Assembly: GCA_041659065.1 (NCBI GenBank) | Contig: JBAZYY010000003.1 | Coordinates: 20,696 to 84,695, forward strand | Origin: Parcubacteria group bacterium | GTDB lineage: Bacteria; Patescibacteriota; Minisyncoccia; Moranbacterales; UBA11712 | Direction: 5' to 3' | DNA: 64,000 nucleotides | Shown here: in pieces, positions 6,099 to 29,258 of the stretch | How positions within the stretch are numbered: the first letter of the stretch is position 1 | Layout: every line of letters begins with the position of its first letter | Position numbers and translations under genes: made by a program | Notes under the pieces: generated by a model | What the model saw: only the letters and a program-made list of their open reading frames with translations | What the model was told of the DNA's origin: nothing | Databases searched by the model: none

Positions 6099-6128
6099 TC
6101 TAGAGGCCTCTATAGAAGCTTCTATCTC
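6099..6128 (+). repeat. twin-palindrome intergenic repeat, copy 1
   Basis: tcTAGAGGCCTCTATAGAAGCTTCTAtctc. Confidence 0.7.
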
Positions 6129-6915
6129 AGTGGATAAATTTCTTCGGGTAATTTCCTCTTATTTCGACTGATATTTTTTTGTCTTCGATATCAACTATGG
6201 AATACGCCTGGCTTGGCACCCCTTTATCATCTTCATTTTCCACCAAAGATTGAACGGTGAAATACGGAATGGAATCATGCAGGTGCATCCTGTTCCAATG
6301 CAAATGACTATTGAATACGGCGATTACTTTTTTTGATTTTGAAAGTATGCTTCTGATTTCTTTTCTGTTCATTATGAGACATTTTTCGGGTTTCCCTTCG
6401 AAAAATGGATTTCCCGTGAGATTTTGTTCAGCCAAACCGTAATGGACGAAGACTAAGCATTGTTTTTCTGTTTCTTCTAAATCTTTCTGGAGCCATTTTT
6501 TCTGTTCATCGGAAATATAAAAACGGATTTTGTCAGCGAATCTTTTTGAAAACAATACTATAAAATGAAAGCGCCCTAAATCAAAGGAATAATACAATTT
6601 TTTTTGATTGAATGATTTGGCTAAATCATCCTCCGCTATATTTTTCAAATCATGATTTCCCGCCACATAATAGACGGGACAGTCCAATCCGTTCAATGAT
6701 TCGATAATATAATCGAGATTATCCTTATCTTTTATCGGATTTTCATCCTGAATTAAATCTCCCAGAGCGATGACCAGCTTCGGTTTGACGTTTTCCTTCA
6801 TTTCTTTGATAAAGTTGCCGAGCAACGTTTTCGCCTCTTTATTCACTTTGCGGAGAATGCCCTTGTGGTATTCTTCGGGACCCATGTGGATGTCGGTAAT
6901 AATCGCAAATTTCAT
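6127..6915 (-). CDS. metallophosphoesterase (calcineurin-like)
   Basis: GDLIQD and GNHD metal-binding motifs are present. The start was chosen at MKFAIITDIHMG (DxH motif); the ORF track extends it to 6939. Confidence 0.75.
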   Translation of the reverse strand: MKFAIITDIHMGPEEYHKGILRKVNKEAKTLLGNFIKEMKENVKPKLVIALGDLIQDENPIKDKDNLDYIIESLNGLDCPVYYVAGNHDLKNIAEDDLAKSFNQKKLYYSFDLGRFHFIVLFSKRFADKIRFYISDEQKKWLQKDLEETEKQCLVFVHYGLAEQNLTGNPFFEGKPEKCLIMNRKEIRSILSKSKKVIAVFNSHLHWNRMHLHDSIPYFTVQSLVENEDDKGVPSQAYSIVDIEDKKISVEIRGNYPKKFIH

Positions 6916-6919
6916 ATAT

Positions 6920-7369
6920 TTATTTCTGTCCCCAATCAATAAGTTCCGTGAATCTTAGATAAAAACCGAACGGATCAACCATCCGAAAATCTTTCCAGGT
7001 GTGCCCGTGATCCTCGAGTTCCCTCAAATCGCGTACTATATATTCCTGAAGATACTGCGACACCATTTTATATATTCCATCTATATCATCGGTAGTTATG
7101 GTTATTTCCGTCGCATATCCTCTTCTTGTTTCTTTGGGAAATTGTTTGAAAAATGACTGATTATAAACCCGCTCATCGCCGCCATAAAAATTGAGCATGG
7201 TGTTTCCCAATTTATCTTGGCGAGTCATCGTCAAATAACCCAACTCTTTTTCATTGAGTTTATCCTCCATGCTGACCGTGAAGCCGAGCTTCGAATAAAA
7301 ATCTTTCACAACGCGAAGATCGGGAACATGCAACTCTATGACTAAATTGTTTCTGATGGGATTTTTCAT
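6920..7369 (-). CDS. VOC/glyoxalase-bleomycin-resistance family protein
   Basis: Paired beta-alpha-beta-beta-beta modules (LVIELHVPDLRVVKDFYSKLGF ... FRMVDPFGFYLRFTE). The start was set at the internal Met MKNPIRNN; the upstream part of the ORF is a non-ATG extension that lies inside the repeat. Confidence 0.7.
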   Translation of the reverse strand: MKNPIRNNLVIELHVPDLRVVKDFYSKLGFTVSMEDKLNEKELGYLTMTRQDKLGNTMLNFYGGDERVYNQSFFKQFPKETRRGYATEITITTDDIDGIYKMVSQYLQEYIVRDLRELEDHGHTWKDFRMVDPFGFYLRFTELIDWGQK

Positions 7370-7383
7370 ATTTTCTATTGAAT

Positions 7384-7445
7384 TATTTCTTCCGCCAATC
7401 ACTGATCTCGACTTTGCCGTTCCCTTTGTCTTTCACAACCAGCTA
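7384..7445 (-). pseudogene. 3'-terminal remnant of an AbrB/SpoVT-family gene (encodes ...LVVKDKGNGKVEISDWRKK*)
   Basis: A 62-nt copy, ~85% identical to the 3' end of the intact small gene at 11440..11610. In-frame TAG/TAA stops lie immediately upstream and there is no start codon. Confidence 0.5.
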
Positions 7446-7473
7446 TTTTTATTTTTAGACGTTGTTTTAATTT

Positions 7474-8121
7474 TCATTTCTGAGTCATTTTTTCTAATAC
7501 GGACAATATGTTTCTACTGATTAATTTGTGTCCCTTCTGATTGGCGTGCAAGCCATCGCGGTAAAGATATTTTTTCTTCCATTCTTCCTCAACCGTGTCA
7601 ACACCGACGAAAGTTATTTCTCTCTCTTCGCAAAGTTGCTTTGCACGAGATTCAAATTTTTGCTTTCTTTCGTTTGTGAAATAGGATTTTCCGCCATCAA
7701 ATGGGCTGATCTTTGGGCATGTTTTTGCTTCGTCGTAAAATCCTCCGCCTACAAAAATCACTTCACTACTAAGCTTCCTTAGAAGATCAAGCAGGTCTGA
7801 CATCTCATCGGTGTATTGTTCTATAGTAGAAAGAAAATTATTCGGCTGGCCTACAGCTCTCGCGTTATTGCCCCCTATTGAAACGATGGTAATTATTTTC
7901 CCGCCCCGTCCGTAATCATTCAGCTGCTGGGGAAAAGTACTCGCGACGAAATCAATCGTAGCTCCGGATTTTCCAAAATTATAAATCTCGTATTTCTCGC
8001 CGACTCCATCCTTCGAATACATCTTTTTGTGAAGACCTTGTTTCACCAAATCGGCCCAACCTCCATTTTCCGCACCGACGCCATAAACGCTACTAGAGCC
8101 GAGTATAAATATCGGGATCAT
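7474..8121 (-). CDS. SGNH/GDSL-family hydrolase
   Basis: GSSSVYG (catalytic Ser block I), block III GGNN, and a C-terminal DGLHxN(Q)xG block. Confidence 0.75.
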   Translation of the reverse strand: MIPIFILGSSSVYGVGAENGGWADLVKQGLHKKMYSKDGVGEKYEIYNFGKSGATIDFVASTFPQQLNDYGRGGKIITIVSIGGNNARAVGQPNNFLSTIEQYTDEMSDLLDLLRKLSSEVIFVGGGFYDEAKTCPKISPFDGGKSYFTNERKQKFESRAKQLCEEREITFVGVDTVEEEWKKKYLYRDGLHANQKGHKLISRNILSVLEKMTQK

Positions 8122-8135
8122 TTAAGTGTTTTGAT

Positions 8136-8783
8136 TTAAAAATTAAAATTATCAAAATTTTCTGTGATACTCCTTATGGATTCATTGGATATCTCGGCGA
8201 GAGGAATACTCACTTTTTCTTGGATTTGTTTCTCAATGATTCGAACCGCTTCAACAAGTTCGGGATAGTCCGGACGACTACTGTAATGAGATGATCTTTT
8301 TCTGAGTTCTTCAAGCCGGTCTTCCAAAGCTTCCACTCCATTCGGAGCAACTCTTAAGTCGGCATATAGCAAAATTTTGGGATACCAATTATTTCCCGCA
8401 GCCGTTTCTTTTGATCTGCCGAAAGATTTGTTGAGAATTGTCTGAATTACTAGATCATTAACTTTGAGCTCGGTGAGCATCTTTCCGGTGGCTGCGTGAT
8501 CATCTCGGCCATATTTTCCGATCATCTCTTTCTGGATATTTTTCCAATACTCTACATTTTCACCCTCATTCGTCAAAATTTCCGGAAATTTTTCCAGGTC
8601 AAATTTTACAACGTTTCCCAAGTCATGGAGTAGGGCGGATTTTATTAGAATGTCCCAATCTATTTCCGCCGAATAATCATGCCAGCGGTTTTGAATAAAC
8701 GAAACAACTTTCGCAACGGTCAGCATATGCCTCGCAAGATTCGGGGGAATATTGAATTTTTTATAGATATCAACTATTTCCAT
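8136..8783 (-). CDS. HD-domain phosphohydrolase
   Basis: H...HD motif (ARHMLTVAKV ... ALLHDLGN). Confidence 0.7.
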   Translation of the reverse strand: MEIVDIYKKFNIPPNLARHMLTVAKVVSFIQNRWHDYSAEIDWDILIKSALLHDLGNVVKFDLEKFPEILTNEGENVEYWKNIQKEMIGKYGRDDHAATGKMLTELKVNDLVIQTILNKSFGRSKETAAGNNWYPKILLYADLRVAPNGVEALEDRLEELRKRSSHYSSRPDYPELVEAVRIIEKQIQEKVSIPLAEISNESIRSITENFDNFNF

Positions 8784-8833
8784 TTCTTTTTAGATGAATT
8801 CTCCTCTCCTACTTTTTCCGCCAATCGCCGACA

Positions 8834-9541
8834 CTATTTTGCCATAGCTTTCTTCCTCAAGTCCTCGGGCATTTTTTCAATCGCATAGCGGAGTGCCGTG
8901 CGGGGCATTTTCGCCTTGTTTTTCATGACATAACGAAAAACCTCCTTTTGATGCGCTTGGCTCGCGGCTTTGAGCATCCAACCGTATCCCTTCTGCACCA
9001 GATCCTCCTTGTCGAGAAGAAGAATATTGGCAATCTCAAAGATGTCTTTCAAAAAATTTCCCTGCCGCGCCGGAATGATGAGCGAAACCGCCGAAGCGCG
9101 GCGCATCCAAAGATTTCTTGACCGAGCCCACTTTTTCAAATTTGCCAAATATTCCGGATACATGCTAATAAAATCACCAACCGTATGGTTGCAGAGCGTA
9201 TCACAAGCTGCCCAGTTGCGCACATATTCTTTCACCCATTTTTCAAAAACTTTGAAATCCTTTGGCTCGAAATCTTTGCGAAGAAGATAGGACCAGTGGC
9301 AGGCGACAAAAGATTCTTCCATATAGCCGGACTGCCACAAATCTTCGCACAAAGCGAAAATGTCCGATTTTCTTCGGCTTTCAATGTCCTTGAAAAAATC
9401 CTTCGCTATCCGGGCGGTAACGGCGGATTTCACTCCGTATAATTTCACTGCTTCCTTGAAAAAACGCTCGCCGCTTTTTTTCGTTTTCAAATCAGAATTC
9501 TTTTTGAGTTCCAAGCGAATTTTTTTGAGGACATTATTCAT
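8834..9541 (-). CDS. DNA alkylation repair enzyme (AlkD-like HEAT-repeat glycosylase family)
   Basis: Matches the DNA_alkylation family signature over its full length (FFKDIESRRKSDIFALCEDLW ... WAACDTLC ... RRASAVSLI ... KGYGWMLKA). Confidence 0.7.
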   Translation of the reverse strand: MNNVLKKIRLELKKNSDLKTKKSGERFFKEAVKLYGVKSAVTARIAKDFFKDIESRRKSDIFALCEDLWQSGYMEESFVACHWSYLLRKDFEPKDFKVFEKWVKEYVRNWAACDTLCNHTVGDFISMYPEYLANLKKWARSRNLWMRRASAVSLIIPARQGNFLKDIFEIANILLLDKEDLVQKGYGWMLKAASQAHQKEVFRYVMKNKAKMPRTALRYAIEKMPEDLRKKAMAK

Positions 9542-9590
9542 ATATTCAAAGAATAATTTTATTCTATTATTTCTTTATAGCAGCAGAGAT

Positions 9591-10553
9591 TTAGCCTTGT
9601 TTTAGGCCAAGCTTTCCTTGCCGGAAAAAATATTCATTTTCTTTTGAATTATTTTTTTCCACTATTTTTTGATAGTTCGCCAACAAAATATGCATCGCAT
9701 GTGCCAGTTTAATATAGACAGGAAGAGCTTCTAATTCTCTGGCGGTTAATTTTATTTTCTTTTGGTATTCTTTCAGCGCAAGTTTAAGGTTTTCTTCACT
9801 CTTTGATTTACTATCCTCATCAAAAAACAGATTGCAAGTCAAGACGGCAAGCTCTTGAACGCGAGGATAATAGCCTGATACTGAAAAATCAATAATCCAA
9901 ATCTTTCCATGCTTATCTTTCATTACATTTGGTTTGATGATATCTCCGTGAATAAAGCAGTGAGGCAGTTTTTCAATTTGCAACTTTTTAAATTCCTTCA
10001 TGAGCGGCGCCACTATTTTCAAATCTCCTGGTTTCAAGTATTTTCCCTTTTTCCTGAATTCTTTGGCGAAATTTATAATTGCCCAGGAATCATAAATAGA
10101 CTTTGGCTTTATTTTTAGGGAATTTATCAATGCGGCTTGCCGAGTTATAAACTTGATCTCATTCGGATTGACTTTCTGTTTCGAACGCAAAAAATCTTCT
10201 CCATCCACATATTCCATAACGCAAAGCCTTAATTTTGTATTATTTATTTTTACTTCATATAAATAACCTTGCTTGGATTTTAATAGCTTTGGAACGGCAA
10301 CGCCCTGATCAATAACTTTTGACATGATATCTATGATCCCGCTGCAATCCTTTTCAGTCCTAAAATTGGCAAATATTTTCACAAAATAGCTCGACCTGGT
10401 TGTTTTCAAAACGTAATTAAAATCTTCATAACCGACGGTTACCAACTTATTGGATACAAAATCACCAAGTTTAAAATTCTGGCAGATATCAAAAGACACA
10501 TCTTCCAATTTTCCTTTGTATCCAATTCTTTGAAAAAATTTCTCCGTATTCAT
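9591..10553 (-). CDS. aminoglycoside/choline-kinase-like phosphotransferase (APH family)
   Basis: Brenner motif HGDIIKPNVM and the IIDFS (DFG-equivalent) motif of the phosphotransferase enzyme family. Confidence 0.7.
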   Translation of the reverse strand: MNTEKFFQRIGYKGKLEDVSFDICQNFKLGDFVSNKLVTVGYEDFNYVLKTTRSSYFVKIFANFRTEKDCSGIIDIMSKVIDQGVAVPKLLKSKQGYLYEVKINNTKLRLCVMEYVDGEDFLRSKQKVNPNEIKFITRQAALINSLKIKPKSIYDSWAIINFAKEFRKKGKYLKPGDLKIVAPLMKEFKKLQIEKLPHCFIHGDIIKPNVMKDKHGKIWIIDFSVSGYYPRVQELAVLTCNLFFDEDSKSKSEENLKLALKEYQKKIKLTARELEALPVYIKLAHAMHILLANYQKIVEKNNSKENEYFFRQGKLGLKQG

Positions 10554-10591
10554 AATTTATTTCCTCTTCCAATCGCGGATTTTAAATCTAG

Positions 10592-11413
10592 CTATTCTTT
10601 TTTCTTGCACGTTATTATCGTATATGGAATTTTCCAAGCATAAGGATTGTCCTTCCTAGTCAGAACTTCGCCTAATCTTTCGACATGCTCGCTTATATAT
10701 TTTTTAGCCTCCGCAATGTCTGCTGGAGAAGCGTTCACGCGAGTTACAAAAAATTCATCAAATTTTTCATAAAGTTTCGGTCCAACGGAAATTCGTGAGA
10801 TTTCGTCAAAAATTTGCTCGTGCAAAGCGATGCCTTCTTCTTTTCCAGAAAAAGAAACTTTTCTATGGGCAAAACCAAAAATCCCGTTGAAAGCCTCGGC
10901 TTGCTCCTTGTCTTTGAATGATCCAAATTGGCTGACCAAAATTCCTCCTGGCTTGAGAACGCGATAGATTTGTCTGAGAATTGCAGCTTGATCTTTTCCT
11001 TCAACATATTGTAACACGCTTCGCAAAAGGACGATGTCGGCCGATTCATCAGGCAGCGGATTTTTCACCAAATCGCCTACGACCTTATCTGCCTGAACCG
11101 GACTTTTCTCCATCGCCACCTTGTTCATATCAACCATCACCAGTTTTGCCTTTTTGCTGCTTGCAATAAATTTTTCTCGAATGTAATTTCCCAATATTCC
11201 CTGACTTGATCCGGCATCAATAATAGTTGGGTTTTCTAATTCAAAAATTTCAGGCGGAATATTTTCCGCAAAAATTTCGCAGTTTTCCCTGCTGCTGAAG
11301 TAGCCATTATAGATCTTCTCCAGTGATTCGCCCTGACCACCCGCAGCCCGCTTGGCAGCTTCAATATCCTGCTCGACGGCTGAAAAATTATTTTCACCTG
11401 ATGATTCACTCAT
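10592..11413 (-). CDS. class I SAM-dependent methyltransferase
   Basis: Motif I IIDAGSSQGILG and a post-I acidic residue. The start was set at MSESSGENNF; the ORF's longer N-terminal extension is an out-of-frame read of the AbrB-like gene's 3' end. Confidence 0.7.
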   Translation of the reverse strand: MSESSGENNFSAVEQDIEAAKRAAGGQGESLEKIYNGYFSSRENCEIFAENIPPEIFELENPTIIDAGSSQGILGNYIREKFIASSKKAKLVMVDMNKVAMEKSPVQADKVVGDLVKNPLPDESADIVLLRSVLQYVEGKDQAAILRQIYRVLKPGGILVSQFGSFKDKEQAEAFNGIFGFAHRKVSFSGKEEGIALHEQIFDEISRISVGPKLYEKFDEFFVTRVNASPADIAEAKKYISEHVERLGEVLTRKDNPYAWKIPYTIITCKKKE

Positions 11414-11439
11414 ATTTTGTTCATTCTGACTTTCTTCTT

Positions 11440-11610
11440 TCACTTCTTCCGCCAATCGCTGATCTCTATTTTCCCGTTTCCTTTGTCCTTCACAACCAGC
11501 TTTTGTTTTTCCTTCCATTTGTATTTTTCCACGATTTCTTTTGGGATGGTCACCGAAAAACTATACGCGCTGGATTTTTTCAATTTGTGGACGCTTTTTC
11601 GCTCGGCCAT
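11440..11610 (-). CDS. AbrB/MazE/SpoVT-family small DNA-binding protein (56 aa; not in the ORF track)
   Basis: Manual translation gives MAERKSVHKLKKSSAYSFSVTIPKEIVEKYKWKEKQKLVVKDKGNGKIEISDWRKK*, which carries the swapped-hairpin SVTIPKEIV...KLVV signature. It sits 26 nt upstream of the methyltransferase start. Confidence 0.6.
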   Translation of the reverse strand: MAERKSVHKLKKSSAYSFSVTIPKEIVEKYKWKEKQKLVVKDKGNGKIEISDWRKK

Positions 11611-11621
11611 TGTAATATATT

Positions 11622-12410
11622 TTAATTTTTACGGGCAAATATGGCACCGGACACATGGGTTTCTTTGAATTTGTCTTCAGGATTTATTTTTAGTAGTTCT
11701 TGAATCAATTCTTTTTCAAAATTTGCTGCTTTATTTCCGAACAATTTTTTTGCGGCATAAGAAGTGGTATATTGCTGTTTGATGATATCCTGGCTGGAAA
11801 TTATTTGAACGGCTGAGGGATATTTCAGATATTCTATATTCTTGAATCCAGCCTTTTTCAGAATATCCTCGTGTTTTCCGGGAGGTTCAGTATATAATCC
11901 ATTGCCCGCTCTACGCTCCTCGCCCAGATATTTTTTGATAATTTCCAGGACCTTATTTTTCCAGATATTTCGTTGCTTTTTCCAAATACTGTACCCGGTC
12001 CACGCGACAACAATGCCGCCATCGTCCAATAAAATTATATTGGCAAGATTTGCAAATTTTTCCCGGTTTATCCAATGAAAAGAAGCGCCAAAAGTTATGA
12101 GCTTGAATGAGCCGATTGTATCATCCAAATCATCCGCGGATTTGTTTATCCATTTGATATTTTGTATGCCCGCTTCTTTCGCCATCCTCTTTCCCTTTTT
12201 GATCATTCCTGAATCAATATCTACAGCAATAACTTCTTCGAAATATTTGCTCAAAGGAACAGTGAGGACTCCCGGACCGCAGCCGATATCCAACAATCTT
12301 CCTCTGCCGTCCAGATGAAATTTATCAACAATATCCGAGAACATTTTATCAGGATAGGACGGGCGATATTGGGCATAATATTCAGATGTCCCTTCAAAAA
12401 GAGTTTTCAT
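11622..12410 (-). CDS. class I SAM-dependent methyltransferase
   Basis: Motif I LLDIGCGPGVLT, then EVIAVDID, then ITFGASFHW. Confidence 0.75.
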   Translation of the reverse strand: MKTLFEGTSEYYAQYRPSYPDKMFSDIVDKFHLDGRGRLLDIGCGPGVLTVPLSKYFEEVIAVDIDSGMIKKGKRMAKEAGIQNIKWINKSADDLDDTIGSFKLITFGASFHWINREKFANLANIILLDDGGIVVAWTGYSIWKKQRNIWKNKVLEIIKKYLGEERRAGNGLYTEPPGKHEDILKKAGFKNIEYLKYPSAVQIISSQDIIKQQYTTSYAAKKLFGNKAANFEKELIQELLKINPEDKFKETHVSGAIFARKN

Positions 12411-12454
12411 ATCAAAAGTTTATATTATTTTCGAGATCAATATTACTGGATTTT

Positions 12455-12490
12455 TAGAGGCCTCTATAAAAGCTTCTATTTTTATTTTAA
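12455..12490 (+). repeat. twin-palindrome intergenic repeat, copy 2
   Basis: TAGAGGCCTCTATAAAAGCTTCTAttttt. Confidence 0.7.
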
Positions 12491-12521
12491 CAGACCCGCA
12501 AAAAAAGAAAAACAGACATGT

Positions 12522-13025
12522 TTAATTGAAAGATCTAAAACTTTTATGATGTCCCTCAAAGTCAATTTTGGTAGGAGCATTTACCTGTCTAGTTGAAAAA
12601 TAAATAGAATACAATAAGGCAGCTAATGTGATTACAAGAGTGAAATATGCAACCCATAGAGTTTTATTTGCAATTATGATAGCTTTCCGAGACAAGTTTT
12701 GTGCCAAAATTGTATCCTCTTTAGCTTGCCGGAGCTCTTCATATTCAAAATACTGAATATAGGCTTGATAGCTTAATGTATATTTACTCTCATCAGCATT
12801 CTGATTTCCCAATTGTTCAAGTAAAGTATACGGGGTTTCACGATTTAATCCTCTTGTGAAATTATCAAAAGCATCATTAAGAAATTTTTTCACTATTTCC
12901 CATTCCCTTTCCCGTCTACTGTAATGCGTTTCTATGTCTTTATATATGAAACCATTTGGACGCTCATACCCGTATCGAACTGCCCTTACATGAATCCCAT
13001 CCCCATCTTTGTTTTCACTACTCAT
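12522..13025 (-). CDS. hypothetical protein with C-terminal TM helix
   Basis: ORF with one strong C-terminal hydrophobic helix; its start is preceded by the TTAGCG-N3-CGCTAA palindrome. Confidence 0.4.
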   Translation of the reverse strand: MSSENKDGDGIHVRAVRYGYERPNGFIYKDIETHYSRREREWEIVKKFLNDAFDNFTRGLNRETPYTLLEQLGNQNADESKYTLSYQAYIQYFEYEELRQAKEDTILAQNLSRKAIIIANKTLWVAYFTLVITLAALLYSIYFSTRQVNAPTKIDFEGHHKSFRSFN

Positions 13026-13086
13026 GATTTTAAACTATAAGTGCTTAGCGCTTCGCTAATTTCTATTACAGTTAATTCAAAAATTA

Positions 13087-14046
13087 CTACTGACTATTCG
13101 ATCCTAATACTACGGTCGTAGATCTCAAAGGCTTTGGAATAGGGAAAATATTTAACTTAAATAAATGGTTCAGCAATAAATACCTTGCGACATCTTCCAT
13201 CTGAATTACCAGAGAAAGTAACGCAACAGGATCATGCTTATAATTTTTTTTGGTCTTGTCCAAATCATAAATGATCGTTTCTCCGGGAACAGTTTCTATG
13301 TGATTTTTTGCAGTTGGTATAAGGCTTTCGTGTACTGTTTTATGTCGAATGCGTTTGTTGACTGTTTCGATAATTTCTCCGTATGCATTTTGAGCATCTG
13401 GGTTGCCTGGTATTAGTTCGGTAAGCCTATGGTTTCTCCAATCGGATGGAGACACTGAATGATGCTGTAAACCAGCTCTTTTGCATCCATCACAATAAAA
13501 TAATTTATCGCAAAATGGCTGTGTCCCTATTAACTTATCTATTATTGAATAATAAATCATTAGCTGCCAATACGATGTGTCGGTTATTAATTTATTCGGA
13601 TAAGTAGTACCTTTATTTAGACGGGTCAAATAATTTATTACCAATTCAATTTCATCCGTTTTTAATTCTAGAAAAGTGGCATAGAGTTTTTGATAACTTT
13701 TTACTGTTTTTTCAGCACTATTTTTTTGAAAAAAATACACGTAAGGCAATACATCATCATAATCAATAGCGCATATGAGTTTCTCCTTAATAAATTCTAA
13801 ATTTCCAGTTCCATTTTTTTCAAACTCACTTAGAGTATAATGGGAATTTAAAACAAATGTATGAAAAATAATCCAATTTTTTAATATCTCGTTATTTTTA
13901 TAGTTTTTTGCGGTGATTGTATCAGTATAATATTTTCCTCCAACACCAATTCTTACACAGGCTCTTTTATGTGGTTCGATAATTAATCCATCTGCCAGAA
14001 GTATTTTATTTTTAGGTGAAAAATTAGTTGGAAAAATCATAACCAT
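13087..14046 (-). CDS. hypothetical protein (319 aa), possibly Abi-like
   Basis: No confident motif. Contains a C-x2-C-x...H pattern (CDGCKRAGLQHHS). Confidence 0.4.
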   Translation of the reverse strand: MVMIFPTNFSPKNKILLADGLIIEPHKRACVRIGVGGKYYTDTITAKNYKNNEILKNWIIFHTFVLNSHYTLSEFEKNGTGNLEFIKEKLICAIDYDDVLPYVYFFQKNSAEKTVKSYQKLYATFLELKTDEIELVINYLTRLNKGTTYPNKLITDTSYWQLMIYYSIIDKLIGTQPFCDKLFYCDGCKRAGLQHHSVSPSDWRNHRLTELIPGNPDAQNAYGEIIETVNKRIRHKTVHESLIPTAKNHIETVPGETIIYDLDKTKKNYKHDPVALLSLVIQMEDVARYLLLNHLFKLNIFPIPKPLRSTTVVLGSNSQ

Positions 14047-14076
14047 TATTGATTATATAAAGTTTTGAAATAGTAG

Positions 14077-14125
14077 TCTCTATAGAGGCTTCCATCTCTT
14101 CTCTAATCCTATCACTTCTATACCT
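14077..14125 (+). repeat. twin-palindrome intergenic repeat, copy 3 (degenerate)
   Basis: tctctatagaggcttccatctcttctctAATCCTATCACttct. Confidence 0.55.
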
Positions 14126-15056
14126 ACTGGCAATCCGCATCACAGGCGATGCCGTCGTGATCGGCGTCTCTTCTTGTGCATCCGCAAGTGTTGAGCTGGT
14201 ATTGCGCTTCGGCGCAGCCCATTTGCGGACAAGTCTTGCCGCAGTTGCAGGTATAAGTTCCGGTTGTGTTTGGAGTCGTCAGTTGAACGGGCAAAGCGAT
14301 TGGCGCCGGGGTCGGAGCAACGGAAACCGGGGGAGCGGGGGAAGGGGACTGGGTTTCGGTTTGGCAGGCGCCTTCGGCCCACAAGCCCCGCTTGTTATTT
14401 TTCGCTTCTTCTTCGGCAAGTTTCAATTGATCTTGAAATTTCGTGTCCGGGGGATAATTCGCGGATTTCGCAAAACCATTTCGCACGAGATAGTCATTCA
14501 CGAAAGTATCGCCGTTATAGGCATAGCGGAGGAGGCGGCCGTATTTGTCCGTTTCGGAAACATCTTTCACAAGCCGCACTTCTTTGCCTTCGACAAGCTG
14601 CCTGTTCTTTGTGCTGGCTTCTTTTTCAAAACAGGGCGCCGGATTGGCGGAGCCGGCCGCTTCGGGTGCGTCTATTCCGATATATCTCACCACTTGACCG
14701 CTTTCGAGTTTGATCGTGTCGCCGTCGACGACGCGAGCCACTTTGAATGTTTCTTCTTGGGGTGGCTGTTGCTCCGTTTGCTCCGGCTCTTTGTTTTTAT
14801 GTCTTTCGGCTTCCAGTTGGTTCTTGAGCTCTTCCACTTGGGAATTGAGAGCGGCCGTTTCACTTGGCTTTTTGTCGGCGTGTCCTCCGGAGGAAAGAAG
14901 AAAAACAAAAACAACCACGACAGCGGCGGTTGCGATCCATTTATTCCTCTTTTTCCAGTCAGTTCTTTGCCAGACGACCCAAATCAACGTGATCGGCAGA
15001 AAAATGACCATGATGATTGCTTTCAAGATGGCGAGAAGATCGATTTTTTGAGCCAT
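14124..15056 (-). CDS. membrane-anchored thermonuclease (SNase-like) with C-terminal Excalibur Ca-binding/Cys-rich domain
   Basis: An N-terminal TM helix, then an SNase fold (VVDGDTIKL ... VRYIGIDAPE ... YGRLLRYAY), then a Pro-rich linker, then DADHDGIACDADC (Excalibur-like DxDxDGxxCE). The segment is strongly GC-enriched. Confidence 0.7.
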   Translation of the reverse strand: MAQKIDLLAILKAIIMVIFLPITLIWVVWQRTDWKKRNKWIATAAVVVVFVFLLSSGGHADKKPSETAALNSQVEELKNQLEAERHKNKEPEQTEQQPPQEETFKVARVVDGDTIKLESGQVVRYIGIDAPEAAGSANPAPCFEKEASTKNRQLVEGKEVRLVKDVSETDKYGRLLRYAYNGDTFVNDYLVRNGFAKSANYPPDTKFQDQLKLAEEEAKNNKRGLWAEGACQTETQSPSPAPPVSVAPTPAPIALPVQLTTPNTTGTYTCNCGKTCPQMGCAEAQYQLNTCGCTRRDADHDGIACDADCQ

Positions 15057-15153
15057 AGGCTTGTTTTAATTCTATGTCGAGGATAATCCTTTTTGGCTTA
15101 AAAATCAAGTATTGTTTCAAAGATTAAGAGCCAGCATGTTTCGGCAAGAAAAA

Positions 15154-15207
15154 TAGAGGCCTCTATAGAAGCTTCTATTTTTTAATCCTATCGCTCCTGT
15201 TTTTTTA
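15154..15207 (+). repeat. twin-palindrome intergenic repeat, copy 4
   Basis: TAGAGGCCTCTATAGAAGCTTCTAttttttAATCCTATCGCTCCTGttttttt. Confidence 0.75.
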
Positions 15208-15352
15208 AGCTACGGAAAAAAATAAAAAAGGCGGCCTCCATAGGGGAGCGCGTCGCTCTTTCTGTTCGAGCCAGCGACCCGGAGATGCCCGAACCGACGG
15301 GAGCAAACGCCTTAGTTTCTCGCACCTTGCGGACTATTTTTTCTGATGGTCG

Positions 15353-16438
15353 CTAAGATTCAAGAAATATGTCTTGATTTCGAGGATTTATTCCTTCTAC
15401 TCTCTCTACCATAAACTTTACCGCTTCATTCATATTCGCAGTCTGTAATTTTATTTTCGGATATTTATTGTGAAAAACACGAAATATTTCATCAGCAAAC
15501 GCCTGACCAACGACAGGAACCTTATCAAAATCGAAAACAATAAACCGAAATTTTTCCAATCCAACCAAAACTCTTCTGGCCTGTGAGCGAGAAATATGCA
15601 CACCTCCTAAGGCATAAAGCTTGATCTTGATTTCCGTTTTATCAAAACCATAGTTGCTTTTTTCGTCAATATTAGCATAGCGCTTGAAAACGTCATTAAG
15701 ATGGCCCTTTGATTCTACTGAAATATTGAATATGACTTTAGTGCCATTTTTTCGTTTTCCCTTGCCTTTTATCTCTTGTAAAAAAACATCTTTCACTTTG
15801 TTGTTTACTATCAGTCTGTAGCCATAGCTATCCAAAATGAATTCGTCGCCGACTTTTGATGTAAAAAATATACCTTCACCTGAATGAGATTTGGGTAAAG
15901 TGGTTGTTTTTCCTTTCAGGAGATCCTGGATAGCCTCCAACTCTGATTTGAGACCTTTTTTCTGCATGATATTTCGAAATACGCCCACACCGAAATCATT
16001 CACAATGAACGAAAGATGCTTTTCTTTGACGGACACCTCTACGGAAATCTTCGATGATCCGGAATGCTCAATGGCGTTATTCAGCATTTCAGAAAAAGCA
16101 TAGATGAAAATACTCCTCACATTTTCACCCAGTTTCAATACCACTGGAAATCTGGCTTCTATCTCATCCAGGACTTTGTGCTCTTCCAAATTATCGTTAG
16201 GAAATGTTTTAACAAACTTTGCAGGAAAAATCTCCAAATGTTGGGAAGCGTATTCGGGAAGAGTATACTGCGCGTTTCTGGTTGAACCTATTTTAGTAAG
16301 TTTTCCGTCCGAAACAAGCTCCGAAATTATGCTGCTTGCATATTGCCGTGAAACGCCAAGAAGCTTGGCGATATCAACCGTCTTTATGGACCTGCCTCGT
16401 TTTTTCGCCAGTTCAAGAATTTTTTTTCTCGTATCCAT
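15353..16438 (-). CDS. HTH + HATPase_c-like + STAS-like (DUF4325-type) regulatory protein
   Basis: N-terminal winged HTH (TVDIAKLLGVSRQYASSIISEL), a central GHKL-type ATPase N-box (NAIEHSG), and a C-terminal STAS-like segment. Confidence 0.55.
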   Translation of the reverse strand: MDTRKKILELAKKRGRSIKTVDIAKLLGVSRQYASSIISELVSDGKLTKIGSTRNAQYTLPEYASQHLEIFPAKFVKTFPNDNLEEHKVLDEIEARFPVVLKLGENVRSIFIYAFSEMLNNAIEHSGSSKISVEVSVKEKHLSFIVNDFGVGVFRNIMQKKGLKSELEAIQDLLKGKTTTLPKSHSGEGIFFTSKVGDEFILDSYGYRLIVNNKVKDVFLQEIKGKGKRKNGTKVIFNISVESKGHLNDVFKRYANIDEKSNYGFDKTEIKIKLYALGGVHISRSQARRVLVGLEKFRFIVFDFDKVPVVGQAFADEIFRVFHNKYPKIKLQTANMNEAVKFMVERVEGINPRNQDIFLES

Positions 16439-16605
16439 ATTTGTAAACTAATTGTAATCTATACAAAATTAATTGTCAAGCAATTGTCAAGTCAATACAA
16501 CAAAATTAGGTTTATACAAGCCTTAAAATAAACTTACTCACGAGACAGAAAATCAAACGTTGCTTCGCAAAGGTCGAGTTCGGTGAGGATTCTGCCTTTC
16601 TTTTT

Positions 16606-16672
16606 GAGGCCTTTATAGAAGCTTCTATTTTTTATCCTATCATTCCTGCTTTTGGGCAAGGCTGAGATGGGA
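16606..16672 (+). repeat. twin-palindrome intergenic repeat, copy 5
   Basis: GAGGCCTtTATAGAAGCTTCTAttttttATCCTATCATTCCTGcttttgggCAAGGCTGAGATGGGA. Confidence 0.7.
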
Positions 16673-16708
16673 TTTTGCAATCGAAAAACGGAGATATGAG
16701 ATGAAACT

Positions 16709-18004
16709 TCAAATCATCTTTTTATCTTCGCTCAAGGCTATTTCTGCGTCGAGAGTGACTACTTCGACTGCGGCGAGCGAGCGTTTCTGATTGCGCATGA
16801 CCATGATTCCCAATGCCGCAGCAACGATCGCAGCCAATCCTCCGACACCCAAACTCCAACGCGGACCAGCATGTTCACCAACCCAGCCGATTAACGGACC
16901 GCCGATTGCCGTGGATCCGAGATAAGACATTGACCAGAGAACCATAACCCGTCCGCGCAGCTGTGGGTCGCTGTTTAGTTGCAAGGTTGAATTGGCGAGA
17001 GTTGCAAACCAAATGGAACATGCCCCGACCAGCACCATGACACCTACCGCAAGAAACAAAGTTGGCATCAGAGATATCAGAATGACAGAGCAGCCAAACA
17101 CGAACGCGGCTATGGCTAGCGTATCCGATCCCTTAATTTTTCGACTGGCATGAAAAAGTCCTCCCAAAACAGAGCCGAGCCCTAGGGCTCCTGTCAGTGC
17201 AGCGTAGCTGCTGGGGCTGCCGTGAAATGAGGTCTTGGCAAGCAGCGCCAAGCTAACCGGAAATTCATACGTGAGCGTGCCAATTATCGCGATCATAACG
17301 ATTGTGCCGGCGAGGATAGGTTTTGATAAAACGTGGCGAAAGCCCTCCCAAATCATTCCTTTTGATTTTGGAAGCGGTGAACCTTTGTGAAGTTCATCCT
17401 TGTTTATGAGAGAGAGGGCAATGATTATCACGATATAGGAAGCACCATTGAGAATAAAACAGGGAGCGAACCCAGTTGTTGCGATTAAAATGCCTGCCAC
17501 TGCCGGCCCCGCAACTCTGGACAAATTTAGCATACTTGCGTTGAGCGTAATAGCATTCTTTATTTTATGCCCCTCGACCATTTCTGGAATAAAAGCATAA
17601 TAAGCTGGGCTGTCAATAAGGCTTATGATTCCTGTGGCGAGACTCAAAAGAAAAATCATCCAAACTTGGATGATCCCAGTCAAGACCAGGATGCCAAGCG
17701 AAAAAGCCAGGATACCAAAGGCTGATTTGGTCATGATCAGGAGGGCACGCTTGGAAAATCGATCTGCAACCATGCCGCCCCAAGGTCCCAACAGTAATAT
17801 GGGCAAATATTGCAAGGATACGGCGACTCCCAAAGCGGTGCCTGAGTTGGTCATTTTCAAGACCAGCCAAGCAAGAGCAATTCCCTGCATGAAGGTACCT
17901 GCCATTGAAATGCTCTGGCCGATAAAATACAAACGAAAATTACGGGTTGCAAGCGAAGAAAAAGTATCTTGGCTGAATTTTTTTATTTTTGCTTTCATAA
18001 CCAT
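16709..18004 (-). CDS. MFS transporter
   Basis: Twelve TM helices with the MFS motif A (GPWGGMVADRFSKR). Confidence 0.8.
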   Translation of the reverse strand: MVMKAKIKKFSQDTFSSLATRNFRLYFIGQSISMAGTFMQGIALAWLVLKMTNSGTALGVAVSLQYLPILLLGPWGGMVADRFSKRALLIMTKSAFGILAFSLGILVLTGIIQVWMIFLLSLATGIISLIDSPAYYAFIPEMVEGHKIKNAITLNASMLNLSRVAGPAVAGILIATTGFAPCFILNGASYIVIIIALSLINKDELHKGSPLPKSKGMIWEGFRHVLSKPILAGTIVMIAIIGTLTYEFPVSLALLAKTSFHGSPSSYAALTGALGLGSVLGGLFHASRKIKGSDTLAIAAFVFGCSVILISLMPTLFLAVGVMVLVGACSIWFATLANSTLQLNSDPQLRGRVMVLWSMSYLGSTAIGGPLIGWVGEHAGPRWSLGVGGLAAIVAAALGIMVMRNQKRSLAAVEVVTLDAEIALSEDKKMI

Positions 18005-18060
18005 CCAAGGTATTATTTCTAGCGCTTCGCTAAGGTTCGACCTTAGCGATAATCAGTATG

Positions 18061-18100
18061 CTCTATAGAAGCCTCTATTTCTTTTTTTATCTCGTCACCC
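18061..18100 (+). repeat. twin-palindrome intergenic repeat, copy 6 (degenerate)
   Basis: ctcTATAGAAGCCTCTAtttctttttttatctcgtcaccc. Confidence 0.5.
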
Positions 18101-18124
18101 TTGCTCTAGGAGAAAAGCAAAGAC

Positions 18125-19228
18125 TCAAAAATCTTTATGCCTTATTTCGCTGAGCCCTTTTTTGGCTTTCTTGATGAATTTCCCAAATTGACGATCCTTT
18201 TCCTTTTTTTTAAGTCCGGTCATTTCAAAATATTCAGCTTCTTTTTTCAGACCAATATAGTTTGAATATTTATCTTCATCTAATTTGCCTGATCTTAACG
18301 CGGCCAGCACCGCGCAGCCTGGTTCGTGGACGTGCGCGCAATCGACATATTTGCAATCTCTCCCGATGGCTGTTATTTCATCAAATGTGTCGTTTATGCC
18401 GGCGTTCGCATCTGTCATTCCCACTTCCCGCACCCCGGGATTGTCGATTACGATGCCGCCCTGAGCCAAAAAATACATTTCTCTGGCAGTAGTTATATGT
18501 TTTCCTCTGCCGGAACGCGAACCAATGTCGCCGGTTTTTATTTCGCTTCCTCCAGTCAGCTTGTTTATTAAGGAAGATTTTCCAACCCCGGATGATCCCA
18601 AAAAGCAATAAGTTTCCCCTTTGGCTATATATTTTTTCAATTCATCCAATCCTTTGTCTGTCAAAGTGCTGGTCGGAATGACATCAATATTTTTGAACCT
18701 GTCTTTCATCTGGACCAGCTTTGAATCCAATTCTTCCCTTGAGATTAAATCTATTTTATTAAGTATCAGAGAGGGCTTTATCCCGCCATCACTTGCTAGG
18801 GCGAAATATCTTTCCACGCGGTTCAGGTTATAGTCCCTGTCGACAGATTCGATGATGAACGCCACGTCAATATTTGTTGCGATGATTTGGGCTTCATCTT
18901 TTTCGCCAGCTTTATTTTTATCGCCGCGTCTTCTTTTGATTATCGTCTTTCTGGGTAAGATGCTGCGAATTACCGCCTGCTGTCCATCAGCCTCTAAAAT
19001 TGTCACCCAATCGCCGACAGCCGGATAATCTTCCCGCGATGTCGCGCTGAACATTTGCTTTCCGGTTATTTTTGCCAGATACTCGCCAGCGGCATTTTTT
19101 ACTTTGTAAGCACCTCTCATCTCGGCAATCACCCGGGCAATTTGAAAAGTATCCAGTCCGAGTTTTGCTCGACTGGTTTCAAAAAAGGCATTCCAGCCTA
19201 GATCTTCAATTGATAATCCTTTTTCCAT
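18125..19228 (-). CDS. rsgA: ribosome small-subunit-dependent GTPase A (RsgA/YjeQ/EngC)
   Basis: Circularly permuted GTPase order (NKIDL ... then GSSGVGKSSLIN) plus a C-terminal zinc motif CKYVDCAHVHEPGCAV. Confidence 0.85.
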   Translation of the reverse strand: MEKGLSIEDLGWNAFFETSRAKLGLDTFQIARVIAEMRGAYKVKNAAGEYLAKITGKQMFSATSREDYPAVGDWVTILEADGQQAVIRSILPRKTIIKRRRGDKNKAGEKDEAQIIATNIDVAFIIESVDRDYNLNRVERYFALASDGGIKPSLILNKIDLISREELDSKLVQMKDRFKNIDVIPTSTLTDKGLDELKKYIAKGETYCFLGSSGVGKSSLINKLTGGSEIKTGDIGSRSGRGKHITTAREMYFLAQGGIVIDNPGVREVGMTDANAGINDTFDEITAIGRDCKYVDCAHVHEPGCAVLAALRSGKLDEDKYSNYIGLKKEAEYFEMTGLKKKEKDRQFGKFIKKAKKGLSEIRHKDF

Positions 19229-19245
19229 TTTTTTAAATTTTTGAC

Positions 19246-19320
19246 AGAAGCCTCTGTAGAAGCTTCTATCTCTCCCTTAATCCTATCACTCCTGTTTTTT
19301 CAGGCAAGGCCGAGATGAGA
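19246..19320 (+). repeat. twin-palindrome intergenic repeat, copy 7
   Basis: cAGAAGCCTCTGTAGAAGCTTCTAtctctcccttAATCCTATCACTCCTGttttttCAGGCAAGGCCGAGATGAGA. Confidence 0.7.
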
Positions 19321-19998: not shown

Positions 19999-20313
19999 CT
20001 ACGCCAGGGGCTTCGGAGCGCCATGCTTCGGACTACTCTTGCGTCCGAGTAAAAAATCCTTAGCCAAGGCTACTGATAATAAACGCTTATATGCAAATGC
20101 TTTTCCTGAACCAGATTTCAAATATTGCTCAAAATCTCTAGCTTGTTTTTCAGTCTCAAAAGCGGAGTACCAAACCAATCTCCAAGGCAAATGAGGTTTT
20201 GTCGATTTCACATTGCCGGAATTGTGTAATTTTATTCTCTCTTTAAGATTATTTGTTGAACCAAAATAAAATATATGAGATTTTGAGCTAAGTAAAATAT
20301 ATGTATAGTGCAT
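19999..20313 (-). CDS. GIY-YIG nuclease superfamily protein (YhbQ-like)
   Basis: YTYILLSSKSHIFYFGSTNNLKERIKLHN is a GIY-YIG core. The start was set at MHYTYILL; the ORF track extends it to 20358. Confidence 0.7.
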   Translation of the reverse strand: MHYTYILLSSKSHIFYFGSTNNLKERIKLHNSGNVKSTKPHLPWRLVWYSAFETEKQARDFEQYLKSGSGKAFAYKRLLSVALAKDFLLGRKSSPKHGAPKPLA

Positions 20314-20527
20314 AACAAAAACCAAGGCTAATAATAGAATAGTATACCATAGTGGCATGCCATTCCGTAGCCTTGGCGAAGGATGGCTCCCTGAGCCGGT
20401 CTAGAACCGGGGATTATTGACGTTTTCAAGGAGCTTTCGGGGGTTTACGATTTTTGGAAATTTGAAGAGGATCGGTCGCAATTCGAAAAGCAAAATGAGA
20501 CAAATGAGACACGAGACAGCACTTGTC

Positions 20528-21634
20528 TCATTTTGAAGAATGGGACATCTCCCTGTCTCTTTTTTTGAGATCACTTTCAATAAGCTTTCTTAAATTTTCT
20601 TCGCCTTCTACTCCCCTGAGGCGTCCCGTAAGAAATCCCAGGCGATATCTGGCTCCATCGCTCATCAGACGCCAATTCGTGCCTTCTAGAGCTTTCTTGA
20701 AGATTTTTTGAAGCTCGTGGACACTGTCCCATTCGGATCGGCCGGATTTGGAATCTTGCAGGCCAAAGCCCAAAATAACATCTTTTTGAAGTTCAGGTTT
20801 TTCAAATTCTAGTTTAGCGTAACCTGCTTTCTTAAGAATCGGATCAAGGAGTTTTTGAAGCTCTGAAATGGTAAGATTTTTTATATTATCAACGGCTTCA
20901 TAGAGTTCTTTGTTTTCTTCTTTTTCTTTCCAGTCATCCATAAGTTTCCCCATGCTTTCAATCTGACTCATAATCTCGTATCCTTCCTGCTCCGGAAGGC
21001 AGTATTTCTTTCGATTGGCTTCAAAGTCGGGATCAATCTGTTCTTCTTTCTCTTCGGCCAAATCTAGTGTGTCAATTTCTATGTGGCCGCATTGTGGGCA
21101 GGAATATTTTGTAGTAATGATATTATCTTTTCTTCTGCTTTCTGATTGCGCTTCCGCTTTGCATTTTATGCAAATCGGCTTATGCTCCCATTCTTTTCCG
21201 TTTTCCCAATATGCTCGACGCTTACCGCATTTCTTGCACTCAAACATAAAAAGGACTTCCTCTTTTCCTTGATGATTGTTCATAAGATCGCGGGACGTGC
21301 AATTTTTCAAAAGTGAGCTGCAATTGAGGCATCGAACACCTTGAGGTTCCCGGGCATTGGCAATTTTTTCGTCCTTGGCTTGATCTCGCTTCATCCATTC
21401 CTGGATCACTTCCGATTTTTTTGAAGCGTAATCGGCCTTCATAATGTTGAGGACAAGCGGAACAGCCGCTTTTTTGAAGTATTCTTTTTTTATCTTTGCC
21501 AGCTTTTTTTCTTTGCCCTTAAGCTTGGAAATGTCTTTTGGATATTTCGTGTTATCCCAACGTTGGCATTTTTCAATAGTGAGTTTGTCGTAGAGCTCGC
21601 TGTAATAAGTGTGATCTTTGAGATATTGATACAT
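20528..21634 (-). CDS. multi-zinc-ribbon protein of unknown function (368 aa)
   Basis: Several CxxC pairs (CLNCSS...C, FECKKCGKR, CIKCKAE, CPQCGH). It lies 3 bp downstream of the 1220-aa gene, and a hairpin/T-run terminator overlaps its stop. Confidence 0.5.
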   Translation of the reverse strand: MYQYLKDHTYYSELYDKLTIEKCQRWDNTKYPKDISKLKGKEKKLAKIKKEYFKKAAVPLVLNIMKADYASKKSEVIQEWMKRDQAKDEKIANAREPQGVRCLNCSSLLKNCTSRDLMNNHQGKEEVLFMFECKKCGKRRAYWENGKEWEHKPICIKCKAEAQSESRRKDNIITTKYSCPQCGHIEIDTLDLAEEKEEQIDPDFEANRKKYCLPEQEGYEIMSQIESMGKLMDDWKEKEENKELYEAVDNIKNLTISELQKLLDPILKKAGYAKLEFEKPELQKDVILGFGLQDSKSGRSEWDSVHELQKIFKKALEGTNWRLMSDGARYRLGFLTGRLRGVEGEENLRKLIESDLKKRDREMSHSSK

Positions 21635-21637
21635 CTT

Positions 21638-26118: not shown

Positions 26119-26175
26119 CCTTTATATACGACCGAAATTATTATATAAAAGTGAAAAAAGATTTATTGTATATTT

Positions 26176-29100: not shown

Positions 29101-29256
29101 CAAATGCTCAACCAAAACAATGTCCTTGTATGATTGCCGTTCCGGCGATTCACCATCAAAAGCGATATTGGGACCGAAAACAATCGAATAGCCAAGTTCC
29201 TCAAGCCATTCGAGGGCTGCGTTTTCCAAGTCTGATTCGGTGTATTTGTTTGTCAT
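26176..29256 (-). CDS. hsdR: type I restriction enzyme R subunit
   Basis: N-terminal HsdR_N nuclease region, SF2 helicase motifs ([11 protein letters not shown] = motif I; [10 protein letters not shown] = DEAH box), and a C-terminal HsdR-specific domain. Length is 1026 aa. Confidence 0.9.
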
Positions 29257-29258
29257 AG

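Follow-up and report, generated by a model that had tools for sequence, protein, structure and literature searches.

The DNA analysed here, a stretch of 64,000 nt from contig JBAZYY010000003.1 of a Parcubacteria group bacterium (hereafter the window), carries between 6 and 19 kb seven copies of a tandem-palindrome element. We interpret this element, with moderate confidence, as the operator of an autoregulated repression system in which AbrB-like dimers would lie side by side over the transcription start and control a lineage-wide regulon. Small dimers of the AbrB/MazE fold, one of them putatively encoded at bp 11440-11610 of the window, would bind one per palindrome in neighbouring positions and, once bound, would block initiation or promoter escape. 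The AbrB-like protein is predicted to repress in this way its own gene (or genes) and a regulon, conserved across Candidatus Moranbacteria, that includes rsgA, a peptidase-S51 gene and, downstream of rsgA, a shuffled set of accessory units of one gene each (6-19 kb in the window). The observations behind this prediction are the motif, its conservation, its position with respect to promoters and genes, and its association and co-variation with the AbrB-like gene.

Core copies of the element begin at bp 6101, 12455, 14071, 15154, 16604, 18054 and 19245, all in the same orientation, where approximately 0.1 would be expected by chance. The 12-mer TAGAGGCCTCTA (with at most one mismatch) was matched four times (0.06 expected) and the 12-mer TAGAAGCTTCTA six times (0.13 expected), and no shuffled sequence equalled either count. 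A repeat search of the window returned a seven-copy, one-strand family at bp 6108, 12462, 14078, 15161, 16611, 18061 and 19252, while an nhmmer profile of the core recovered the same seven sites and no other match in the 64 kb. These counts confirm the seven-copy family, with both 12-mers in place, that had been proposed in a first-pass annotation of the window, and the profile search bears out its restriction to the 6-19 kb array. Between 0.2 and 34 kb, every gene is encoded by the minus strand (gene calls are simple open reading frame (ORF) and codon-score calls). Every copy occupies the gap that separates two successive genes, with 16-165 nt left to the downstream ATG, so that the single orientation and the intergenic placement ahead of minus-strand genes described earlier hold for all copies in the window.

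The sense-strand consensus of the window copies is CTTGCCTnnAAAAACAGGAGTGATAGGATTAAAnAAgAA-ATAGAAGCTTCTATAGAGGCCTCTA. All seven lie on the minus strand, and each had been described as a pair of perfect palindromes; this is true of only two. The first (bp 6101-6124, sense TAGAAGCTTCTATAGAGGCCTCTA) abuts the stop of a metallophosphoesterase gene, 71 nt before the ATG of a cupin gene, and the second (bp 15154-15177) is found 97 nt before a thermonuclease gene, whose orthologue in locus L002 has the same site and promoter module. The copies at bp 12455-12478 (44 nt before a SAM-methyltransferase gene, itself followed by the AbrB-like gene), bp 16604-16627 (165 nt before an HTH-HATPase-DUF4325 gene) and bp 19245-19268 (16 nt before the rsgA ATG) carry one, two and three substitutions, respectively. 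The remaining two, at bp 14071-14094 (TGGAAGCCTCTATAGAGACTACTA; 24 nt before a 319-aa gene) and bp 18054-18077 (49 nt before an MFS transporter gene), have a degenerate fourth half-site.

The conserved unit of the element is a 24-bp core, (TAGARG·CYTCTA)x2, in which four TAGARG half-sites of alternating orientation form two abutting 12-bp palindromes. In-register runs of two units were found in 123 cases and runs of three units in 22 cases. The four R/Y positions vary almost independently of one another (AGGCCT, 68; AAGCTT, 47; AAGCCT/AGGCTT, 65), and 64% of units are palindromic versus 50% expected. If the 24 nt are instead folded as one long hairpin, Watson-Crick pairing holds at its two variable pairs in 52% of cases, with 22 G-U pairs against 16 mismatches on the sense strand, and no covariation signal was detected in either the short palindromes or this longer hairpin. 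Because the R/Y positions vary near-independently and with no pairing preference, they fit the degenerate half-site of a protein, not the paired bases of a stem. The core is a dyad-symmetric sequence with repeated half-sites, as expected of a transcription-factor operator, and this half-site logic argues that it may behave, as the first-pass annotation had suggested of the double palindrome, as a binding site for a dimeric protein.

Of the seven window copies, all but one have a -10-type hexamer 5-11 nt upstream (CGAGAT, a degenerate form, in one case); it is preceded by TGn in five copies, and three have a TTGCCn -35. The module previously noted beside the repeat, AATCCTATC(R)CTCCTG/CAAGGC, is the reverse complement of this promoter: TTGCCn, a spacer of mostly 16 nt, and the extended -10 TGaTAGGAT. 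Its hexamers had been assigned with TAGGAT as the -35 and TATAGA as the -10, an assignment that we revise, as TAGGAT is the -10, with TGn before it and TTGCCn 16 nt upstream. On the minus strand, the promoter module consists of TTGCCT, a 16-nt spacer and TGaTAGGAT at bp 19280-19307 (upstream of site 19245), TTGCCA, a 16-nt spacer and TGaTAGGAT at bp 14106-14133 (site 14071), TAGCTT, a 16-nt spacer and CGaTAGGAT at bp 15185-15212 (site 15154), and TTGCCC, a 14-nt spacer and TGaTAGGAT at bp 16634-16659 (site 16604). A second promoter match (TTGACA-17-TACAAT) was identified near site 16604 at bp 16479-16451. Also on the minus strand, an extended -10, TGtTAAAAT, is found at bp 12484-12492, 5 nt upstream of site 12455 (with the same arrangement at L002:5789, L015:3401 and L125:6106), and a weak, degenerate -10, TGaCGAGAT, at bp 18089-18097 upstream of site 18054; no recognisable -10 or -35 was found upstream of site 6101. 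The AATCCTATC(R)CTCCTG sequence itself, attributed earlier to the whole family, is present at 14071, 15154, 16604 and 19245, degenerate at 18054 and absent from 6101 and 12455, and the tail CAAGGC(T/C)GAGATG(G/A)GA is, as reported, common to 16604 and 19245. This long module (AATCCTATC...CTCCTG, CAAGGC...) occurs only in the window and in a few relatives and is not part of the general element; a TTGCCn...GGAGTGRTAGGAT module recurs ahead of sites in several genomes.

As the -10 ends 5-11 nt before the core, a start 6-8 nt past the -10 would coincide with the first bases of the site or immediately precede them, and the core would therefore cover roughly +1 to +25 of each transcription unit in the window. 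We infer these start positions, as we do binding itself and repression rather than activation. The association with promoters extends beyond the window and is strand-specific: among 69 co-directional intergenic sites, 15 have TGnTAnnAT at -2 to 14 nt on the sense side and none has it on the antisense side, while TAnnAT alone was found in 28 and 15 cases, respectively. The distance of the -10 from these sites peaks at a 1-nt overlap (TAAAAT continuing directly into AGA...) and at 4-5 nt.

A scan of one genome per species with the exact 19-mer TAGAAGCTTCTATAGAGGC identified 17 stretches, mostly from metagenome-assembled genomes (MAGs) of Candidatus Moranbacteria, Parcubacteria or Patescibacteria, although the label is "uncultured Bdellovibrionales" for four of them and "uncultured Saprospiraceae" for one. 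The self-complementary degenerate pattern TAGARGCYTCTATAGARGCYTCTA was found in 110 metagenome stretches. A profile search followed by duplicate removal gave, at a threshold of at least 18 bits, 128 non-redundant sites in approximately 0.84 Mb, in which the flanks diverge between loci while the core stays. In literature searches that paired Moranbacteria, Patescibacteria or Candidate Phyla Radiation with palindrome, repeat or regulon, neither this motif nor any regulon of the lineage was found to be described, and a search with the 12-mer matched only synthetic eukaryotic heat-shock-element oligonucleotides and primers. To our knowledge, the Moranbacteria-type lineage has not been grown in pure culture.

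The candidate binder encoded at bp 11440-11610 (minus strand) is a 56-aa protein of the AbrB/MazE/SpoVT fold (Pfam PF04014, 32.2 bits versus a cut-off of 24.7). The top 18 PDB fold matches of its AlphaFold2 model (pLDDT 73) are all AbrB-fold proteins, among them SpoVT, MazE, an Sso7c4-type "histone-like protein", AbrB-N and C68; a PDB search with its sequence matched no chain at E ≤ 1. Its close homologues fall into 92 clusters with 65-91% identity, and their source taxa are almost all Moranbacteria or Parcubacteria. The gene most commonly found behind a site belongs to this family of 55-59-aa AbrB-like proteins (10 in the cluster, at least 13 loci, site 18-106 nt upstream), followed by rsgA and the peptidase-S51 gene. 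When AbrB-like homologues were looked up by protein only, which avoids ascertainment through the site, nine independent loci were obtained, and eight of the nine have a tandem-palindrome site within approximately 130 nt upstream of the ATG. The sites are canonical and located 18-125 nt before the ATG in five of these loci (L129, L132, L137, L138 and L139), of a diverged canonical type in L142 and variant in L135 and L140; in L136 there is only a degenerate site, ahead of the preceding gene. In L129 and L132, the flanks of approximately 40 kb contain four sites, all less than 1 kb from the AbrB-like gene. Gene-site association, together with the co-variation described below, makes the AbrB-like protein the best candidate of the two binders that had been put forward; the other, the product of the HTH-HATPase gene, has no homologue in any other locus.

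Three further observations concern the AbrB-like genes. A toxin-antitoxin function was considered and rejected, as the genes downstream encode MFS, NUDIX, HAD, methyltransferase and peptidase proteins, not toxins. A second conserved hairpin, CCCCAGTTGAAT..TGCG..CGCA..ATTCAACGGGG, is found between the site and the ATG of many of these genes (L002, bp 7585-7625 approximately; L015, bp 6660-6700 approximately; L077; L088/L025; L037), and sequences from three AbrB-leader loci gave no Rfam match to it at E ≤ 1. Finally, a variant AbrB-like gene is located between fusA and tuf in the str/S10 ribosomal-protein cluster (L135, bp 6100-6270, and a second genome), and in L135 it has its own variant palindrome upstream.

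The sequence of the site varies with that of the protein. Six homologues with SSA, NGA, SSK or KSC at residues 13-15 are associated with TAGA-type half-sites. Homologue P0080 (L140), with ANK at these residues, is associated with TAGT-type half-sites (TAGTGGCTATCA TAGTGGCCACTA TAGTAGCTACTA), as is P0084 (the L135 protein encoded between fusA and tuf), with INR (TAGTATCTACTATAGTAGATACTA). In the L136 genome, in which P0077 has TSK, TAGTGGTCTCTATAGAGGTCACTA is found before rsgA and a three-unit relative before a hydrolase gene, and the sites are TAGTGR/TAGAGR hybrids. The change from TAGA to TAGT at position 4 of the half-site has been made symmetrically in all half-sites, as predicted, within this small sample, by regulator-operator co-evolution. 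Hand alignment to AbrB places residues 13-15 ahead of the conserved "VTIP" strand, in the segment that corresponds to the DNA-contacting loop of AbrB-fold proteins.

The site is also conserved upstream of orthologous genes while the spacer diverges, as seen for rsgA, peptidase S51 and the AbrB-like gene. Among rsgA orthologues (62-71% aa identity), those of at least five species (the window, L051/L068/L099, L138, L053 and, with a variant site, L136) retain it downstream of a -10 box and ahead of the ATG, and an N-terminal rsgA fragment in L003 also has a site. The peptidase-S51 gene retains the site in five loci. In L138, nine to ten sites are found in the 8 kb downstream of rsgA, one per gene and in gene orientation, like those at 6-19 kb of the window. 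The array genes (glyoxalase, 82% identical; MFS, 80%; nuclease, 65%) are in a different order between genomes, and two truncated AbrB-like 3' ends are present in the window array on the minus strand. One of these (bp 7387-7453, ending in LVVKDKGNGKVEISDWRKK and a stop) is 87% identical to bp 11444-11510 and lies directly before the glyoxalase gene; the other is shorter (bp 8802-8831, ending in GDWRKK and a stop) and lies before an HD-domain gene. The varied gene order and the truncated 3' ends point to reshuffling, and the remnants look like scars of recombination between AbrB paralogues. A further truncated AbrB-like 3' end (of the ISDWRKK-stop type), which looks like another such scar, is found at bp 26489-26518, and an ECF-type (extracytoplasmic function) sigma factor gene (Sigma70_r2 + r4_2; bp 3752-4351, minus strand) is located just downstream of the array. 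Taken together, promoter association, conservation and the AbrB link lend support, at the level of sequence comparison, to the lineage-specific promoter/operator arrangement that had been suggested for the repeat.

A number of observations weigh against autoregulated repression by AbrB-like dimers. Because an exact-match pattern was used to find most loci, the conservation of the core is in part a product of ascertainment; three variant cases underlie the co-variation; and the AbrB link could mean merely that AbrB-like genes belong to the regulon of another factor. A recognisable adjoining -10 is present at only 22-41% of co-directional sites. The sites use gap types in background proportions (69 co-directional, nine convergent and seven divergent; background 84%, 8% and 8%), with nine of them between convergent genes. 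Twelve of the 69 co-directional sites start no more than 5 nt past the upstream stop, and some gaps are almost nothing more than the site (stop-1 nt-site-6 nt-start), with no room for a promoter. Finally, while 102 of the 128 sites are intergenic, 26 were called inside ORFs; with a few of these set aside as start-codon miscalls, approximately 16-20% of sites are coding, which a plain operator does not predict. The claim that all copies lie at gene 5' ends is not supported in the related genomes, where 20% of the 128 sites are inside coding regions. Across these sites, the position of the element shows a strong intergenic bias (80% of sites versus approximately 17% non-coding DNA) and the strand-specific extended -10 link, but no exclusive bias toward gene starts; the lack of positional bias that, according to the first-pass annotation, would refute its reading was therefore found only in part.

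The coding-region sites are found in genes for RF2, CysRS, MetRS (two positions), TyrRS, PheRS-beta, DNA polymerase I (PolA), an ELP3-like radical-SAM enzyme, a glycosyltransferase and an LTD/PKD protein (examples include L126:4768, L067:21, L041:1854, L064:5682, L082:6304, L080:6281 and L090:5965). They are translated as (I/V/L)EASIEAS or, on the other strand, YRGxYRGxY. Comparison with solved RF2 structures places "IIEASIEASK" where these have "EFNDEIDID", a length difference of one residue, which indicates that the motif evolved within the existing sequence rather than by insertion. Orthologous coding sites are at the same position within flanks that are 66-87% identical in nucleotide sequence; the R/Y positions differ while the 20 fixed positions are kept. 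None of the 26 has an extended -10 beside it. These sites appear to be under selection at the DNA level, and their occurrence in frame is not explained by the operator reading. A wider form of that reading would accommodate them, although we consider it unlikely. According to this form, AbrB-like proteins and (TAGARG·CYTCTA)n sites would exert genome-wide control beyond promoter repression, with the sites in RF2, four aminoacyl-tRNA synthetases and PolA serving as roadblocks or nucleoid anchors that couple growth-related genes to one factor, and with sites and AbrB paralogues acting as crossover points that shuffle the single-gene units downstream of rsgA.

Two other explanations are in our opinion slightly less probable than this wider form, and equally so. 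The first is that the motif is a genome-wide DNA signal apart from promoters, such as a nucleoid, partition or occlusion site (parS, NBS, SBS or matS) or an uptake sequence, kept wherever it is tolerated. This would account for the sites in RF2, the aminoacyl-tRNA synthetases, PolA and the radical-SAM enzyme, for the maintenance of their fixed positions at the same place in diverged orthologues, for the replacement of native sequence in place (as with uptake sequences) and for the lack of an adjoining -10 at coding-region sites. It fits poorly with the intergenic bias and with a density that is low and clustered: seven sites in 13 kb and none in the other 51 kb of the window, and in L129 and L132 only the four sites near the AbrB-like gene. 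The motif is also unrelated to the canonical parS sequence. A parS/ParB partition site (TGTTNCACGTGAAACA-type 16-bp palindrome near oriC) was rejected for this reason and because hsdM and a ParB_N-methylase fusion, not dnaA, flank the strand switch. GC skew does change sign at approximately 34 kb, where the gene strand switches; as this switch is a restriction-modification (R-M)/mobile island and skew follows gene strand, an origin-proximal, parS-type cluster is not supported. DNA uptake sequences occur about once per kb and are evenly spread; the window density is far below even approximately 1/kb, with 51 kb free of sites outside the array, and this function was likewise rejected.

The second is that the element is a selfish or recombinational repeat, either REP/BIME-like or an attC- or pdif-like crossover site that shuffles single-gene cassettes, to which the promoter link would be secondary. 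The use of all gap types in background proportions, often with the site abutting a stop codon, is consistent with such a repeat, as are the one-site-per-gene arrays in the window, L138 and L002/L015 with genes in different order, the truncated AbrB-gene 3' ends at cassette borders and the similarity between copies and genomes of a 60-75-nt module composed of promoter and site. However, no transposase, RAYT-like or integrase gene was found among the annotated window-array genes or in the L136 and L138 gene tables, and a RAYT (Y1 transposase) gene was absent from the annotated window-array genes and the L129-L138 gene tables (whole genomes were not searched). There are no target-site duplications or terminal repeats, no attC GTTRRRY core and no XerC/D arm pattern, the RF2 segment was replaced in place, sites persist at orthologous positions across species, and the extended -10 association is strand-specific. 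The suggestion of a MITE-like element is likewise not supported: outside the palindrome itself, the conserved 24-bp unit shows neither terminal repeats nor target duplications, and a segment of RF2 was replaced at equal length where an insertion would have added eight codons. An integron attC array was also rejected: no tyrosine recombinase is encoded at 0-34 kb of the window, the genes come with promoter modules of their own, and the site lacks a GTTRRRY core.

The least probable of the explanations considered is an element that acts at the RNA level, in which the transcribed 24-mer would form a 10-bp hairpin with a UAUA loop and serve as a stabiliser of the 5' terminus, a processing site between cistrons or an intrinsic terminator, in some cases bidirectional. 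RNA folding gives -8 kcal/mol for the core and -13 kcal/mol (z = -3.2) with A/U flanks. With an A-run on one side and a T-run on the other, the fully symmetric variant TAGAGGCTTCTATAGAAGCCTCTA reaches -19.8 kcal/mol (z = -7.7); in three orthologous loci (L016:3434, L068:10048 and L095:10133), it occupies the middle of the gap between convergent genes, where it looks like a bidirectional terminator. Such an A-run...T-run frame is found at 10 of 69 co-directional and four of nine convergent sites, some sites fill tiny intercistronic gaps, and the lineage variants keep the 24-nt dyad. Against these points, the variable pairs do not covary, as described above, and for AAGCTT + AGGCCT, the commonest type in the window, the hairpin of either strand contains one mismatch and one wobble. 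In the nine cases in which the -10 overlaps the site, the transcript could not hold the full hairpin, as its 5' arm would be missing. The AbrB-like link and co-variation are also left unaccounted for. An intrinsic terminator was rejected because a sense-strand T-run follows only one of the seven window copies and 18 of 69 sites across loci, and because the stem is weak (-8 kcal/mol).

In working principle, the system proposed here, with AbrB-like dimers side by side on abutting palindromes, would be closest to the MazE operator, with Bacillus AbrB also close. In E. coli, the 47-bp MazE operator contains three consecutive dimer sites at which this AbrB-fold repressor acts on its own promoter (PMC4333400). 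The likeness lies in a small swapped-hairpin (AbrB-fold) protein of Pfam family PF04014, with MazE among its top fold matches, and in consecutive dimer sites. Unlike MazE, the Moranbacteria protein has neither a toxin partner nor a disordered toxin-binding tail, and its putative sites, highly conserved sets of two or three 12-bp palindromes that abut one another, are not confined to its own promoter but occur at dozens of promoters and in some coding regions. AbrB of Bacillus subtilis is a global regulator of many unrelated genes and of its own gene, with a C-terminal tetramerisation domain and a loose binding consensus. The top fold matches of the 56-aa protein include AbrB-N and SpoVT, and the control of many genes along with its own gene that we propose resembles that of the AbrB/Abh/SpoVT group; in contrast to AbrB, the Moranbacteria protein consists of one domain of 56 aa, and its putative site is a 24-mer of sharply defined sequence. 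The met-boxes of MetJ are tandem 8-bp palindromic units, two to five per operator, that are bound cooperatively by neighbouring dimers. The Moranbacteria operator would likewise have a variable number of abutting palindromic units (two or three), with one dimer proposed for each, but MetJ is a ribbon-helix-helix protein with an 8-bp unit, whereas a swapped hairpin, a 12-bp unit and no known co-repressor are involved here.

Two classes of repeated sequence also share features with the element. Like REP/BIME sequences, it is a short imperfect palindrome found in many intergenic gaps, in all gap types and often right after stops. It differs from them in the conservation of its core across species-level genomes, in its strand-specific -10 link, in its link to the gene of a DNA-binding protein, in its additional presence in frame inside essential genes and in that no RAYT or transposase gene was found near any site. 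Like the DUS of Neisseria and the USS of Pasteurellaceae, it is a lineage-specific word that is found also in coding regions, where it replaces tolerant segments in one or two frames. Its density is 10-100 times lower than theirs, and it is clustered and mostly intergenic; furthermore, 24 bp with four half-sites suggests an oligomeric DNA-binding protein, unlike DUS/USS.

If the AbrB-like protein does repress these genes through the tandem palindromes, this would be the first predicted gene-control network for Candidatus Moranbacteria. In an uncultured lineage, sequence is the only basis from which gene regulation can be inferred, and a sharply defined motif with a candidate regulator and a possible specificity determinant offers a directly testable entry point, made up of a 56-aa protein that could be produced in E. 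coli, a 24-bp site and a predicted regulon. The motif would also help to annotate promoters and transcription units in Moranbacteria MAGs. The in-frame sites in essential genes, if functional, would be unusual in that a DNA word with a regulatory role constrains the sequence of proteins.

Several other features of the window were identified. The region at bp 20000-36800 is a defence or mobile island, which includes a Ymh-family gene. It contains the type I R-M genes hsdR (bp 26176-29256), hsdS (bp 30646-31899) and hsdM (bp 32656-34206), as well as genes for a Schlafen/AlbA_2 protein (bp 25297-26118), a GIY-YIG protein (bp 19999-20358) and the ParB_N-DNA-methylase fusion (bp 35384-36733). At Rfam gathering thresholds, the only RNA families found in the window were a group I intron and a LOOT RNA, both away from the repeats. 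The intron (RF00028, 78.7 bits; bp 41667-41907, minus strand) adjoins a GIY-YIG ORF (bp 41934-42170, minus strand), and no tRNA or rRNA gene that might host it was found in the window. The LOOT RNA (RF03000, 69.7 bits; bp 40052-40180, plus strand) is located 40 nt past the ORF at bp 38627-40012, which, judged by eye from an N-terminal resolvase-like motif, looks like a large serine recombinase.

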